From Flavobacteriaceae bacterium (GTDB taxonomy: Bacteria > Bacteroidota > Bacteroidia > Flavobacteriales > Flavobacteriaceae): a DNA stretch of 64,000 nt. Location of the stretch: the NCBI GenBank assembly GCA_029248885.1, contig JAQWIL010000030.1, forward strand, positions 1,431-65,430, written 5' to 3'. Positions 33,631-42,171 of the stretch are shown here, in pieces. The first letter of the stretch is position 1. Every line of letters begins with the position of its first letter. The notes beneath the pieces are model-generated. The model worked only from the letters and a program-made list of their open reading frames with translations, had not been told where the DNA came from and made no database searches. A program made the translations under genes and the position numbers.

Positions 33631-34701
33631 ATGGCAATTAGCTCTTTATTGGTTTTGCTAGTCTATGGTTTTGTCTTTACGTGGTTAACCATTCCTCGTG
33701 TGGCGGAAGTCGTTAGAAAGTATAAAATTTTTCGAAAGCCAAGTGAGCGTGATTTGCATTGGCGTTTTGTCCCCAAGCTCACTGGTTTGTCCTTTTATGT
33801 TGCACTCTTGGTGGTCGCTTTTGCTTTTGTTCCTTTTGTCGATGTGCAGCGACTTATTCTCGTTTTGGGTGCGGGTGCAATCATCGTTTATGTCGGAATT
33901 CGCGACGACATTTATCAATTACGGCCCATTGTCAAGCTTGCACTTCAGCTAATCGCGGTTGGCTTCTTTGTTTTTGGAGATGATCTTGTTGTTCGCAATC
34001 TTCATGGGTTTTTAAACATTTATGAAATTCCCCGTGGGGGCGATTATTTTCTCACCTTTTTTATCGGTGTGTTTATGATTAATGCATTTAATCTTTGTGA
34101 TGGCATCGACGGCTTAGCAGCGATGTTAGGCATCATTATTTCTGTTTGTTATGGCGCAATCTTTTATATTGTAGGGGAATATCTATTCTTGTCATTTTGT
34201 GTGATTCTGATCGGTTGTTTGTTCGCTTTTTTGCGCTTTAATCTCCCGCACAAAAACAAGGTGTTTATGGGGGACACTGGAAGTCTGTTCTTGGGGTTTA
34301 TTTTTTACCTCTTTACCATCTATTTTGTGACAAATCAATCTGTCATATTGTCGGTTTTTGTTCCCCATAAGTCCCTTATAACTTTGGCTGCTCTTTGCAT
34401 TTTTATTGTTCCCATACTCGATTCAGGCAGTGTGTTTTTTAGCCGTGTTTGGCAAAAAAAAAGCCCTTTTAAACCAGACAACAACCACATTCATCACCTA
34501 GTTTTACATTTTACCAAAAATCATGTGATGGCTTCGTTGATAATCGTTGCAAGCTTAACGGCAACACTCATGTTATTTTCTCACCTTGCCTTTACCTTGG
34601 CCCATGAAATCACAACAATCCTCTTTTTGATATACCTGTTTGTTTGGTATGTCGTGCTCTTTTTTATTCGGCGAAGAGTGCGAAAAGAAACCTCTCGTTA
34701 G
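33631..34701 (+). CDS. Polyprenyl-phosphate N-acetylhexosamine-1-phosphate transferase (MraY/WecA family)
   Basis: NAFNLCDGIDGLAA, MGDTGSLFLGF and HIHH motifs; about 10 TM helices. Start re-set to ATG 33631. Confidence 0.85.
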   Translation: MAISSLLVLLVYGFVFTWLTIPRVAEVVRKYKIFRKPSERDLHWRFVPKLTGLSFYVALLVVAFAFVPFVDVQRLILVLGAGAIIVYVGIRDDIYQLRPIVKLALQLIAVGFFVFGDDLVVRNLHGFLNIYEIPRGGDYFLTFFIGVFMINAFNLCDGIDGLAAMLGIIISVCYGAIFYIVGEYLFLSFCVILIGCLFAFLRFNLPHKNKVFMGDTGSLFLGFIFYLFTIYFVTNQSVILSVFVPHKSLITLAALCIFIVPILDSGSVFFSRVWQKKSPFKPDNNHIHHLVLHFTKNHVMASLIIVASLTATLMLFSHLAFTLAHEITTILFLIYLFVWYVVLFFIRRRVRKETSR

Positions 34702-35765
34702 CTCCGTAGCTCCTTTATAATTTTTTGCACTGGAGATTTTACAAGAACCCATCCGACAGAAAACACCCCGCCTAAAAACGTCCAAATGATTACCATCATA
34801 GTTCGTTTAGGTTTCGACCGATCTAGTGGCACGCTTACGGGTTCAATAATCGTAAAAATGGGGGTGTCTTTGTTGACTTGGATTTTGGCTTGCTCAACTT
34901 GTCCTGCCAGTTCCTGAAAAACAGAGGAAGTCACTGAAAACTGTGACTCCAAACGAGTAAGTTGGTTTTGGTACAATGAGGATGTGATGTTGAGGTTTTG
35001 GTCTTTAAAGACCGCTATCGAATCCTGAATCTGTTCAAACTCTTGGCGTTTTGATTCATACTGCCTCTTGATGAAGTCTAAGTTATTTCTTGCGCTTTGA
35101 CTTTTAAACGCGATGATATTGTTCTGCAATAGATCTGTAGCGGCTTGCGCCAGTTGTGCAGCTACCATCCGGTCTGCTAACTCAACACTGATGGAAACCA
35201 ACCCTTCTTGATCATCCACTTCAATTGAGGCGACCTGTGCTAAAAACTCGAAAAGGTCCTTATCTTCCTCTGTAATTTGAAATAGCGTATTGTCTAAGGG
35301 TTCGTTGTTGTCGGTTTGCTTGTTGAGTAACAAGCCAGGGAGGCCTATGGTATATTTTTTCAGTAAAGGTAATATTGCCGAACCGCTACTTTGATCAAGG
35401 ATATAGTTTCGAAAGCTCGTGTCATTTGGCCCCACTTTAGCCTCTAACAATGCCAATCGGTAGGGAATGCTTTCCGCAATTTGCGGGTATAGCGATGGGG
35501 ATATATCTTGGGGCTGGCTGCCCATAATCGCTGAAAGATTAATGCCCGCTAGAGACGCTAGACCGCCTAAAGATGAGTTTGTTTGTCCTTCAGACAATTG
35601 AGGTACAAATGTAGCGGATGCTGTGTACTTGGTGGGGGAAACTAGTGCCAAAATCACTCCATAAATCGCAAAAAGTATGGTCGTTTTAATGACAAAACGC
35701 CTTGCGAGAAATACGGTTTTTAACAGGGCAATCAGGTCGATCTCGTCGTCTTTGTGCGTATCCAT
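34698..35765 (-). CDS. wzz: Polysaccharide chain-length determinant (Wzz/PCP) without a kinase domain
   Basis: N-terminal DEIDLIALLKTVFLARRFVIKTTILFAIYGVILALVSPTKYTASA, a coiled-coil middle and a C-terminal TM helix. No Walker motifs. Confidence 0.75.
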   Translation of the reverse strand: MDTHKDDEIDLIALLKTVFLARRFVIKTTILFAIYGVILALVSPTKYTASATFVPQLSEGQTNSSLGGLASLAGINLSAIMGSQPQDISPSLYPQIAESIPYRLALLEAKVGPNDTSFRNYILDQSSGSAILPLLKKYTIGLPGLLLNKQTDNNEPLDNTLFQITEEDKDLFEFLAQVASIEVDDQEGLVSISVELADRMVAAQLAQAATDLLQNNIIAFKSQSARNNLDFIKRQYESKRQEFEQIQDSIAVFKDQNLNITSSLYQNQLTRLESQFSVTSSVFQELAGQVEQAKIQVNKDTPIFTIIEPVSVPLDRSKPKRTMMVIIWTFLGGVFSVGWVLVKSPVQKIIKELRS

Positions 35766-35772
35766 ACTATAT

Positions 35773-41300: not shown

Positions 41301-41301
41301 C

Positions 41302-42171
41302 TTACTCAAATTCGATTAATTCCGTAGGGTTGATCGGATAGCCGTCGCTCCATAATTCCAAGTGTAGATGAGGTCCTGTTGACAAAATGCCAGTGCTTCC
41401 TGCAAAGCCAATGACTTCACCTGAAACCACGAGGTCTCCTTGATTTACCGCTAATGATTCGTTGTGTTTATACACAGAAATAAGGTTTTGTTCATGTTTA
41501 ATAATAACAACATAGCCCGTCTCTGTTGTCCACTCAGCTAAAATCACCGTTCCGTCCGAAACTGCTTTTACTGGTGTCTTTTCTGGTACCCCGATATCGA
41601 CTGCAAAATGGTTTTCTGAAGGGTTGTAACCTTGGGTGATTACACCTGTTAGTGGGGGAAACAAAGTAAAATTACTTTCAGTACCTGCTGTTTCAAACAA
41701 ATTGAACCGGTCTTCTTGTGCAACCTCTGCACGTAGGATAGAGTCTTGTTGGTTTGTACTAAAATCAAGCTCTTCTATCAAGTCAATCTCTGATTGAACA
41801 TTTCTTGAGGGGATGTCCTCTAAATCCACATTCCCGGTCAAAGCATCCGTTATTGAGGAAATATAACGTTGGTTTAGTAGCAGTTGCTGCTGCAAGGAAT
41901 CCATGAGATAGGTGTTGTTGATTGCTTGTCGCCGCATGACGGTAGAGTCGTATCCAGGAATATATTCTTTGAGGGGGGTTAAGGCAATAATCATATAGGT
42001 TGCTCCGATTAAAAAGATCGCAGAGATGCTCACAATCATAAAAACATTAAATCGACTGAGTTTGTAAGAAAGCATTTCTTCGAATGTGTTCTCATTGAGA
42101 ACAACAAAACGATATTTTGCCAAAAATTTGGCGCGTAGCGATTTCTTGTCTTTGTGATTTGATTTGGCCAT
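41302..42171 (-). CDS. M23 family metallopeptidase with an N-terminal membrane anchor
   Basis: HFAVDI, GYVVIIKH and GPHLHLELW motifs (HxxxD...HxH) plus an N-terminal TM helix. Start re-set to ATG 42171. Confidence 0.85.
   Translation of the reverse strand: MAKSNHKDKKSLRAKFLAKYRFVVLNENTFEEMLSYKLSRFNVFMIVSISAIFLIGATYMIIALTPLKEYIPGYDSTVMRRQAINNTYLMDSLQQQLLLNQRYISSITDALTGNVDLEDIPSRNVQSEIDLIEELDFSTNQQDSILRAEVAQEDRFNLFETAGTESNFTLFPPLTGVITQGYNPSENHFAVDIGVPEKTPVKAVSDGTVILAEWTTETGYVVIIKHEQNLISVYKHNESLAVNQGDLVVSGEVIGFAGSTGILSTGPHLHLELWSDGYPINPTELIEFE

Follow-up and report, generated by a model that had tools for sequence, protein, structure and literature searches.

Does the close packing of a GH3-family ligase gene against genes for polysaccharide export mean that the ligase acts on the exported polymer? 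The question is raised by a co-directional block of five genes on the minus strand of a 64,000-nt stretch of a Flavobacteriaceae genome (contig JAQWIL010000030.1; hereafter the window), encoding an M23 peptidase, a GH3 enzyme, a protein of the DUF6909 family, Wza and Wzz. A sequence-only reading of this locus had proposed that the GH3 protein might amidate the Wza/Wzz polymer, either on a carboxylate-bearing sugar (uronic or nonulosonic acid) or on a lipid or peptide moiety. In such a scheme GH3 would adenylate the carboxylate and join an amino acid to it, and translational coupling would keep the ligase in stoichiometry with export. The same reading had also considered that a conserved module merely happens to lie beside wza, and this second possibility best fits the comparative data presented here. 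We judge it likely, with a probability of about 0.65, that the five genes are two joined units with differing histories, and most likely differing functions as well, and that position is what links GH3 to export.

A tightly packed block in a tightly packed genome

Read directly on the minus strand, all four junctions in the block are exactly as the sequence-only reading gave them. The M23 gene (41302..42171) ends in TAA at 41304-41302, and a single base (g, 41301) separates it from the GH3 ATG at 41300. The GH3 gene (39807..41300) ends in TGA at 39809-39807 and overlaps the start of the DUF6909 gene (38167..39816) by 4 nt (ATGA, 39810) or 10 nt (39816). The start at 39810, which yields 547 aa instead of 549 aa, is the likelier of the two because close relatives have 547 aa and the 4-nt overlap. 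The DUF6909 stop (TAA, 38169-38167) is followed with no gap by the wza ATG at 38166, and the wza stop (TAA, 35775-35773) by the wzz ATG at 35765 after 7 nt. At its stop (34700-34698), wzz shares 4 nt with a convergent WecA-like gene that ends at 34701 and closes the block. With gaps of 1, -4, 0 and 7 nt, there is no space for terminators or promoters between the genes.

The only room available for a block promoter is the 82-nt region (42172..42253) between the M23 gene and a divergent tatA/E gene (42254..42427, plus strand, 57 aa), which marks the upstream limit of the transcription unit. The equivalent of this tatA/E open reading frame in relatives from the window's clade (loci L084-L088) matches PF02416 (TatA_B_E). 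Within the intergenic region, TATATTTG at 42185-42178 on the minus strand fits the Bacteroidota -7 motif TAnnTTTG as a single short match; scans for sigma-70 promoters and terminators gave no excess over shuffle expectation. The five genes are probably co-transcribed from this region in the window's clade.

The unbroken tight spacing of GH3, DUF6909, wza and wzz is the observation that first speaks for a ligase acting on the glycan. However, close spacing is normal in the window as a whole, which is 94% coding: same-strand neighbors are separated by 10 nt or less in 26 of 38 pairs (68%), with a median gap of 0. Four consecutive tight junctions are therefore expected with a probability of ∼0.2 by the base rate alone, and the spacing of the block is no tighter than chance for this genome.

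M23, GH3 and DUF6909 belong to a family-wide backbone

We compared the locus with 80 loci from GTDB species representatives, all of them Flavobacteriaceae and the highest-ranking of more than 588 matches. In this sample the genes holB, PGK, DUF4837, M23, GH3 and DUF6909 form a backbone of conserved order, which also includes an MltD-like gene; from holB to DUF6909, the window and a locus of a sister genus (L001) share 58-75% identity. In 52 of 72 loci, GH3 is found upstream of DUF6909 at a distance of at most 4.5 kb, and 48 of the 72 also have the M23 ortholog, immediately 5' of GH3. The median gap is ∼3 nt between M23 and GH3 (47 loci) and ∼28 nt between GH3 and DUF6909 (44 loci). The three proteins retain 50-70% identity across genera (∼70% for GH3 and 55-58% for DUF6909), whichever polysaccharide genes come next.

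The association with export genes has a different distribution. The sequence-only reading had called for a synteny survey of GH3, the 549-aa reading frame and wza in Bacteroidota; the M23-GH3-DUF6909 trio proved common, whereas DUF6909 has Wza and Wzz beside it in just two settings, the window's own clade (L084-L088), where the arrangement is kept, and the sister-genus locus L001. In the other 79 of the 80 loci, Wza is absent from beside DUF6909. Wza is 72-83% identical within the window's clade but only 25% identical to its L001 counterpart, which is non-orthologous and indicates replacement.

What does follow DUF6909 in most of the family is a polysaccharide island that begins a median of ∼8 nt past its stop in ∼90% of loci. 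A cluster of weakly Wzz-like proteins with two transmembrane segments (c2) follows in 59 of 65 loci and rfb genes in 57 of 65. Weak Wzz matches were found for 14 of 32 c2 members, so it may be usual in the family for DUF6909 to have a chain-length gene beside it. The proximity of DUF6909 to surface-glycan genes in general is therefore ancient, although its proximity to Wza is not, and shared regulation or function could underlie it. In four loci (L016, L017, L052 and L057; three Tenacibaculum and one unclassified), purD follows DUF6909 directly, and in the Polaribacter/Tenacibaculum group DUF6909 is present at the locus with GH3 and M23 not nearby. Conserved synteny inside one family is weak evidence and carries little weight in either direction.

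Taken with the packing of the window, this distribution suggests that the block consists of a conserved trio joined to the start of a swappable island, and it is for this reason that we regard the link between GH3 and export as probably positional and not functional. The first unit, comprising M23, GH3 and DUF6909, is a piece of the Flavobacteriaceae-wide backbone.

wza and wzz form the near end of a replaceable island

The second unit, wza and wzz, opens a replaceable island of the Wzx/Wzy type that occupies the interval between DUF6909 and purD in the family. Wza (35773..38166, 797 aa) has the features of an outer-membrane polysaccharide export (OPX) protein, with a Poly_export domain (PF02563), five SLBB domains and a hydrophobic N-terminus in its translation. 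Wzz (34698..35765, 355 aa) is a PCP-type chain-length determinant with two transmembrane segments and matches above cut-off to the Wzz and GNVR families (PF02706, 37.4 bits; PF13807, 35.8 bits); its NCBIfam matches, to Wzz/Wzc N-terminal models, are sub-threshold. This PCP lacks a tyrosine kinase domain, and a kinase gene was not seen elsewhere in the window either. The convergent gene (33616..34701, plus strand; Pfam Glycos_transf_4) encodes a WecA-like polyprenyl-phosphate sugar-phosphate transferase that matches TIGR02380 under its cut-off. Its ATG at 33616 is favored over a TTG at 33514 because the gene in relatives encodes 361 aa.

The pair resembles those of Wzx/Wzy-dependent loci in its Poly_export and SLBB domains, its Wzz and GNVR domains and its two transmembrane segments, and the locus likewise contains a Wzx flippase, initiating transferases and nucleotide-sugar genes. 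It differs in the length of Wza, which with its 797 aa and five SLBB domains is typical for Bacteroidota, and in a PCP that lacks a kinase.

The island as a whole (9922..38166, ∼28 kb) is of O-antigen/CPS type and Wzx-dependent. A conserved arm of Wza, Wzz, WecA, Kelch, DUF3575, UGDH and GlmS genes leads into a variable core (∼14-28 kb) that encodes PseB-like, DegT, CMP-transferase, formyltransferase, NeuB, epimerase, Wzx and GT2 proteins; rfbBACD and a Bac_transf gene lie past the core, and purD (8606..9886, minus strand; Pfam GARS_N/A/C) stands at the far side. The GC content of the core is 0.27-0.36, compared with 0.40-0.47 elsewhere. Variable O-antigen clusters of Escherichia coli are flanked by the conserved anchors galF and gnd. 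The present island is similarly hypervariable, partly low in GC and set at a fixed site between conserved flanks (DUF6909 and purD), although the anchor genes are different and the likeness is one of genome organization, not homology.

The locus does encode the means to make carboxylate-bearing sugars, as had been noted for UDP-GlcA: a UDP-glucose dehydrogenase is present, together with a nonulosonic-acid gene set that includes NeuB and the CMP-transferase. This is the second point in favor of a glycan-directed GH3. No amide ligase other than GH3 was identified among the five island reading frames that have no Pfam match.

The GH3 protein resembles a bacterial lipid ligase

Pfam domain calls bear out the earlier annotations of M23, GH3, Wza and Wzz. 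The M23 protein (289 aa) is a member of the M23/LytM family (PF01551, 99.3 bits, E 1.5e-28) with an N-terminal transmembrane segment and a C-terminal LytM domain whose translation contains the HxxxD (HFAVD) and HxH (HLH) metal ligands. Its NCBIfam matches are at the domain level only, to MepM/EnvC/NlpD-type models, and every one falls under cut-off. It is predicted to be a membrane-anchored periplasmic peptidoglycan peptidase of the LytM type.

The GH3 protein is a cytoplasmic acyl-acid amido synthetase of 497 aa in which the GH3, GH3_M and GH3_C domains (PF03321, PF23571 and PF23572) score 142.1, 52.6 and 72.1 bits against a cut-off of 23.6. The adenylation (ATP/AMP) motifs TSGTTSG, YPASE and YNIGD align in HMMER with those of plant GH3-1. 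The premise that bacterial GH3 enzymes are functionally uncharacterised is outdated, since a GH3-like lyso-ornithine-lipid synthetase, OlsH (Sinac_1599) of Singulisphaera acidiphila, ligates a fatty acid to ornithine (PMC12493201). The window protein matches the NCBIfam model OlsH_GH3_orni (NF052613) at 389.8 bits (E 1.7e-116) over residues 3-494, below the curated equivalog cut-off of 620, and by this measure is a homolog of OlsH but not an equivalog. The two proteins share a full-length alignment, the three GH3 domains, the ATP/AMP motifs, a cytoplasmic location and a length of ∼500 aa. They differ in that the window GH3 has no neighboring gene for OlsI, the alpha/beta-hydrolase O-acyltransferase that partners OlsH, and lies instead between M23 and DUF6909. 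OlsH and OlsI homologs are found in separate operons in the CFB group (PMC12493201), and the products of Bacteroidota GH3 enzymes are probably other N-acyl amino acids (PMC12493201, PMC12971839); the OlsH authors consider ornithine acylation by these enzymes unlikely because OlsF/OlsB already carry it out there.

Similarity to the plant enzymes is more distant. JAR1, GH3.1, GH3.6 and GH3.12 (PDB 4b2g, 4epl and 4epm) belong to the same family and share its motifs and two-step adenylation and amidation chemistry, but the similarity is local only (E 3e-18 to 2e-9, the plant GH3 structures matching at E 3e-18), the bacterial protein is ∼100 residues shorter and the link to hormone conjugation is absent. 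Judged by these scores, the window GH3 is far closer to OlsH than to plant GH3s.

The strong full-length likeness to OlsH makes a fatty acid a likely substrate. The enzyme would activate a carboxylic acid by ATP-dependent adenylation and pass the acyl group on to an amine. Its substrates are most likely a fatty acid and either an amino acid or the head group of an amino lipid, so that the product would be an envelope compound of the N-acyl amino type and not a sugar amide.

DUF6909 has a nucleosidase-like half

The intervening gene, previously recorded as an unknown 549-aa protein, holds up as a reading frame but is no longer nameless, as it matches DUF6909 (PF21850) with E 1.6e-62. Its AlphaFold model (pLDDT 89.9, pTM 0.86) has two domains. 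In a Foldseek search of the PDB, the C-terminal domain (∼246-549) adopts the nucleoside phosphorylase/MTAN/AMP-nucleosidase (NP-I) fold, with best matches at E ∼2e-7, probability 1.0 and TM(target) 0.6-0.72. There were 498 matches at E ≤0.001 and all 50 of those listed are NP-I-fold enzymes, among them MTAN, PNP, UDP phosphorylase, MTAP, futalosine hydrolase and the AMP nucleosidase 2guw. No PDB structural neighbor was found for the N-terminal domain (∼1-245; pLDDT 87), for which the best E was 0.58.

The relationship is not evident at the level of sequence: Pfam matches PF21850 only and not PF01048, no PDB sequence was matched in single-sequence or profile searches, and identity to the NP-I enzymes whose structures superpose on the C-terminal half (TM(target) up to 0.72) is 8-15%. 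AMP nucleosidase (Amn) also has a large extra N-terminal domain, but the two-domain proteins do not superpose (2guw_B, TM(query) 0.31, TM(target) 0.39, rmsd 20.8), and the N-terminal 245 residues of DUF6909 set it apart from the superfamily.

In the NP-I-like half, G375, E481 and D513 are invariant in homologs down to 26% identity, and the rest of GEQ 375-377, GKAG 401-404, EMEG 479-482 and SD 512-513 is ≥90% conserved. The spacing of EMEG and SD is similar to that of the positions which we take to be ribose-binding and purine-protonating in NP-I enzymes, and by this motif resemblance the active site may be equivalent to that of MTAN/PNP. On the basis of fold and motifs, DUF6909 is predicted to be a cytoplasmic enzyme, most likely one that splits purine nucleosides or nucleotides. 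Among the long distant homologs, 9 of 10 are fused to cNMP_binding, GAF or REC domains, and in other phyla the protein may be under cyclic-nucleotide, GAF or receiver-domain control. These distant homologs lie in unrelated, non-glycan gene contexts, and GH3 and M23 are not among their neighbors.

Alternative explanations

The alternative that survives best, though we consider it unlikely, is that M23, GH3 and DUF6909 act as one envelope module. For example, GH3 might make an N-acyl amino or sulfono lipid or conjugate a cell-wall-derived acid, with DUF6909 clearing the AMP by-product or sensing nucleotide status and M23 remodeling peptidoglycan in step. The trio's co-occurrence and short gaps are as such a module would have them, and the AMP released by GH3 finds a counterpart in the AMP-nucleosidase-like fold of DUF6909; AMP is ubiquitous, however, and a dedicated scavenger would be unnecessary. 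The same backbone carries functionally unrelated genes (holB, PGK, the MltD-like gene and DUF4837), so family-level synteny need not imply common function. DUF6909 also stays beside the island or purD where GH3 and M23 lie elsewhere, and its distant homologs occur apart from both.

It is improbable that the polysaccharide locus instead begins with DUF6909, acting for instance as a hydrolase of a nucleotide by-product or a regulator of nucleotide-sugar supply, with GH3 and M23 as bystanders. Its junction with the c2 or rfb genes (median 8 nt, 59 of 65 loci) is steadier than that with GH3, and in the window no gap separates it from either neighbor. Against this, the four purD-adjacent loci have no glycan genes next to DUF6909, its sequence is conserved across genera despite island turnover, and distant homologs are fused to signaling domains in non-glycan contexts.

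An equally long shot is the combination of three proposals: that GH3 is a missing ATP-dependent N-acyl ligase, that DUF6909 represents a new hydrolase family and that the trio works jointly on the envelope. GH3 would then serve a major Bacteroidota envelope lipid, either by converting capnine to sulfonolipid, an N-acylation step not identified in a 2024 pathway paper (PMC11211663), or by making a new N-acyl amino acid; its ∼70% identity across genera points to a core enzyme. The DUF6909 proteins would be purine N-ribosyl hydrolases that signals can regulate and whose N-terminal fold is novel, and read-through into wza and wzz would coordinate lipid and glycan output.

A GH3 that tailors the exported glycan is very improbable despite polysaccharide genes following DUF6909 in ∼90% of Flavobacteriaceae loci, because a tailoring enzyme should vary or be missing with a variable glycan, whereas GH3 is conserved beside wholly different downstream islands, has DUF6909 between it and the island, lies off-locus in the Polaribacter/Tenacibaculum group and has as its nearest characterised relative an enzyme acting on fatty acids; moreover, the known uronic-acid amidoligase of the Campylobacter jejuni CPS is an ATP-grasp enzyme and not a GH3.

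Implications

We favor the two-unit reading, under which a functional link between GH3 and the glycan is probably absent and the coupling of GH3 to export as a clue to a glycan amidoligase is mostly explained away as a junction between backbone and island in a gene-dense genome. DUF6909 and purD emerge as fixed anchors of the Flavobacteriaceae surface-polysaccharide island, a help in finding and typing such loci in marine metagenomes. DUF6909 itself can now be described as a protein with a nucleosidase/phosphorylase-fold half and an N-terminal domain that has no PDB neighbor, often fused elsewhere to cyclic-nucleotide sensors. About 90% of bacterial GH3 homologs belong to Bacteroidota, none of those being characterised, and the conserved GH3 of this locus is a reasonable first target for lipidomics.

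Organization of the five-gene block

The segment from 34,698 to 42,171 contains five co-directional open reading frames on the minus strand. Pfam searches confirm the Peptidase_M23 domain, GH3 (three domains), Poly_export with five SLBB domains in Wza, and Wzz with GNVR, and they place the 549-aa protein between GH3 and wza, unknown in the sequence-only reading, in the DUF6909 family (PF21850, E = 1.6e-62). Reading the junctions base by base bore out all of the coordinates assigned earlier. The M23 stop (TAA, 41304–41302) is separated by 1 base from the GH3 ATG at 41300, and the GH3 stop (TGA, 39809–39807) overlaps the DUF6909 reading frame, which could begin at ATG 39810 (as ATGA) or ATG 39816. 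The DUF6909 stop (TAA, 38169–38167) abuts the wza ATG at 38166, and the wza stop (TAA, 35775–35773) lies 7 nt from the wzz ATG at 35765. Close relatives of the DUF6909 protein are 547 aa in length and start at a 4-nt overlap, which favors ATG 39810 as the start codon. At the other end of the block, wzz (34698–35765, minus strand) converges on a WecA-like gene (33514–34701) with a 4-nt overlap of the 3′ ends, an arrangement that leaves neither strand space for a terminator. For the WecA-like gene, ATG 33616 (361 aa, as in its relatives) is the probable start rather than TTG 33514.

The gene upstream of the block, tatA (42254–42427, plus strand, 57 aa), is divergent from M23, and the 82-nt region between them is the sole space for a block promoter. 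Within it lies TATATTTG, a fit to the Bacteroidota −7 motif that, as a single short match, is no evidence by itself. Scans with sigma-70 and terminator consensus sequences gave results at or below shuffle expectation, and the TTG-N19-TAnnTTTG pattern has five matches, none of them upstream of the block. A tRNA-Cys (GCA) at 53879–53950 is the sole Rfam or ARAGORN match in the 64-kb window.

The window has a coding density of ∼94%, and 26 of its 38 same-strand neighbor pairs are separated by ≤10 nt (median 0), so that four tight junctions in a row have a probability of roughly 0.2 given this base rate. Because tight gaps are common across the window, spacing alone does not mark the five genes as a functional unit. 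The earlier description of the gene packing is confirmed. Co-transcription is plausible. We consider it probable, at about two chances in three, that the block is a read-through operon spanning the border between two units. One would be a family-wide backbone trio composed of a LytM peptidase in the periplasm and two cytoplasmic proteins, an OlsH-like acyl-amide ligase and an enzyme with an NP-I fold; the other would be the proximal end of a Wzx/Wzy-type polysaccharide island that can be replaced, with one transcript reading through from the trio into the island.

Conservation of the trio in Flavobacteriaceae

To compare loci, we scanned one genome per GTDB species and retained the best 80 of >588 genome matches with 10-kb flanks, all of them from Flavobacteriaceae; window proteins were mapped onto these loci and all locus ORFs were clustered. 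The recurrent gene order is holB (on the minus strand), PGK, an MltD-like LysM/SLT gene, DUF4837, M23, GH3 and DUF6909. Of the 72 loci that extend far enough, 52 carry GH3 shortly upstream of DUF6909 and 48 carry M23 there as well, with median gaps of ∼3 nt between M23 and GH3 and ∼28 nt between GH3 and DUF6909. The Polaribacter/Tenacibaculum/Lutibacter group instead has rnpA and an S41 peptidase gene upstream of DUF6909, with no GH3 or M23 nearby. Synteny inside one family is weak functional evidence. We regard it as rather unlikely that the trio is a true functional module. Two of the loci are titled ‘Bifidobacterium breve’ (CALPIE020000012.1) and ‘Arenicella sp.’ (JBLHIE010000139.1), yet are typical Flavobacteriaceae DUF6909 loci at 56–57% identity; contaminated bins among public MAGs are the probable cause.

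Of the 80 loci, only that of the closest genus has a Wza homolog after DUF6909; this Wza is just 25% identical to the window protein, while the backbone genes from holB to DUF6909 are 58–75% identical. Jackhmmer searches started from the window Wza and Wzz yielded no additional homologs in the 1,226 ORFs of the 80 loci. The window's own clade, represented by TARA and other marine metagenome contigs with GH3 identities of 84–86%, keeps the full order of M23, GH3, DUF6909, Wza, Wzz, (WecA), Kelch, DUF3575, UGDH and GlmS. In these Flavobacteriaceae loci, GH3 and DUF6909 usually occur together without Wza. The sequence-only interpretation is partly supported, in that the alternative it offered, a conserved module that merely sits beside wza, is the better reading, given the frequency of the trio and the clade-specific presence of Wza.

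A replaceable polysaccharide island between DUF6909 and purD

Downstream of DUF6909, 57 of 65 loci have rfbB/A/C/D-type genes followed by variable polysaccharide genes, and in four loci (three Tenacibaculum, one unclassified) purD directly follows DUF6909 with no glycan genes. In the window, purD (8606–9886, same strand as DUF6909) bounds an island of ∼28 kb. The conserved arm of the island encodes Wza, Wzz, the WecA-like protein, Kelch and DUF3575 proteins, UDP-glucose dehydrogenase and GlmS, and has the GC content of the backbone (0.40–0.45). The core (14000–28000) has a GC content of 0.27–0.36, compared with 42–45% in the backbone, and encodes a PseB-like dehydratase, a DegT aminotransferase, a CMP-transferase, a formyltransferase, NeuB, an epimerase, a Wzx flippase and a GT2 glycosyltransferase; past it lie rfbBACD and a Bac_transf initiating transferase. 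The core looks like a recently exchanged, serotype-determining segment.

Judged by gene order, DUF6909 and purD behave as fixed anchors around a replaceable surface-glycan island, and wza–wzz are its first two genes in the window's clade. The galF and gnd genes flank the O-antigen clusters of E. coli, and the likeness in fixed anchors around a glycan island is offered as an analogy.

Several features of the island merit description. The nonulosonic-acid set in the core (PseB-like, DegT, CMP-transferase, formyltransferase and NeuB) looks complete. The Kelch-repeat β-propeller protein, which is 430 aa long and has a weak MarR-like match at its C-terminus, and the DUF3575 protein, both encoded at 31590–33578, are found in the conserved arm clade-wide. 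Just past purD, at 6671–8317, are genes for a GT9 heptosyltransferase and a DUF4254 protein, a pair linked to RfaF in the literature, which places LPS-core genes on the island's far side.

In other genera, the gene that follows DUF6909 belongs to an ORF cluster, c2, whose 345-aa product has two TM segments and no Pfam family. Of 65 loci, 59 have it as the first gene after DUF6909, the gap having a median of ∼8 nt (e.g. L034:11689–12726). This very tight, family-wide junction would favor a functional role for DUF6909 in the glycan locus, as would the weak similarity of c2 to Wzz, of which 14 of the 32 members show sub-threshold Pfam matches, the best at E = 1.6e-4. However, profile–profile comparison of c2 with the window Wzz (hhalign) gave a probability of 0.65% and no support, and a search of the c2 profile against PDB sequences returned nothing meaningful. 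We consider such a role for DUF6909 quite improbable. The c2 proteins appear weakly Wzz-like at the sequence level and may be divergent flavobacterial chain-length determinants.

GH3 resembles an acyl-amide ligase

The GH3 protein contains three GH3 domains with the adenylation motifs TSGTTSG, YPASE and YNIGD. It aligns end-to-end with the NCBIfam model for OlsH, a lyso-ornithine-lipid synthetase (389.8 bits, E = 1.7e-116), but scores below the 620-bit equivalog cut-off; plant GH3 structures give local matches only (E = 3e-18). The view that bacterial GH3 enzymes are functionally uncharacterized is outdated: a 2025 study showed that OlsH of Singulisphaera acidiphila carries out ATP-dependent ligation of a fatty acid and ornithine (PMC12493201; see also PMC12971839). 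Bacteroidota account for ∼90% of >7,500 bacterial GH3 hits, and in this phylum ornithine acylation is unlikely because OlsF/OlsB already perform it, the expected products being other N-acyl amino acids (PMC12493201; see also PMC12971839). The closest biochemical precedent suggests a fatty-acyl substrate rather than a sugar acid, and the ∼70% identity of the window GH3 across genera would fit a core function, not the tailoring of a hypervariable glycan. That GH3 amidates a carboxylate sugar of the exported glycan, as the sequence-only reading proposed from its coupling to export genes, is very improbable: the island does make carboxylate sugars and has five ORFs without a Pfam match, but GH3 is conserved regardless of island content, its adjacency to Wza is specific to the clade and the closest characterized enzyme uses fatty acids.

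A speculative candidate for the role of a fatty-acyl GH3 ligase is the conversion of capnine to sulfonolipid by N-acylation, which the 2024 pathway paper (PMC11211663) did not identify; among the papers searched, none linked GH3 with sulfonolipids. An RB-TnSeq study lists a GH3 gene of Bacteroidota strain YX-36 among rhizosphere-fitness genes, without a mechanism. In a survey of Flavobacteria, each of the 50 genomes had DUF2797 (zinc ribbon), which was listed as linked to a GH3 gene (PMC9425974). There is no DUF2797 gene beside the window GH3, and Flavobacteria may therefore have a second GH3 paralog or context.

DUF6909 contains a predicted NP-I-fold domain

Homologs of DUF6909 number in the thousands and are 55–58% identical across Flavobacteriaceae genera; the family is modest in size, at 672 clusters at 50% identity. 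No papers mention DUF6909, and sequence searches of the PDB with the single sequence and with a profile gave no meaningful match. An AlphaFold model built on 23 homologs has a pLDDT of 89.9 and a pTM of 0.86. The C-terminal half (residues ∼246–549) has an NP-I fold by Foldseek (E about 2e-7 at a probability of 1.0, with TM(target) reaching 0.72), matching MTA/SAH nucleosidase, purine and uridine phosphorylases, futalosine hydrolase and AMP nucleosidase. Residues G375, Q377, G401, K402, A403, G404, E479-M480-E481-G482 and S512-D513 are among those invariant or >90% conserved in homologs down to 26% identity; judged by motif, the E-M-E and S-D positions look like those that bind ribose and protonate the purine in MTAN/PNP and may be equivalent to them. 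The N-terminal 245 residues, modeled separately (pLDDT 87), have no Foldseek neighbor in the PDB (best E = 0.58, TM below 0.2), and the model suggests that this domain may be a new fold.

Among ten longer homologs, nine (P0164, P0193, P0175, P0186, P0212, P0236, P0233, P0224 and P0200) have the entire DUF6909 module placed after a cyclic-nucleotide-binding domain; one additionally has a GAF domain and one a response-regulator receiver domain. On a metagenomic contig (L082:1727–5250), a PAS-HisKA-HATPase histidine kinase gene overlaps the DUF6909 stop. These fusions and the kinase arrangement suggest that the family provides a signal-controlled enzyme output. Distant homologs on three contigs have unrelated neighbors, without GH3 or glycan genes; a fourth contig was too short to be informative. 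A defence-system reading of DUF6909 and GH3 was dropped because PADLOC models matched neither protein; its Pycsar-type models matched only the cNMP-binding domain of one fused homolog.

From the structural model, DUF6909 is most likely a purine nucleoside or nucleotide N-ribosyl hydrolase or phosphorylase, signal-regulated in other lineages, and the few loci in which purD directly follows it agree weakly with this assignment. The main interest of the locus lies in this structural assignment of DUF6909 and in the anchor-gene organization of the flavobacterial polysaccharide island.
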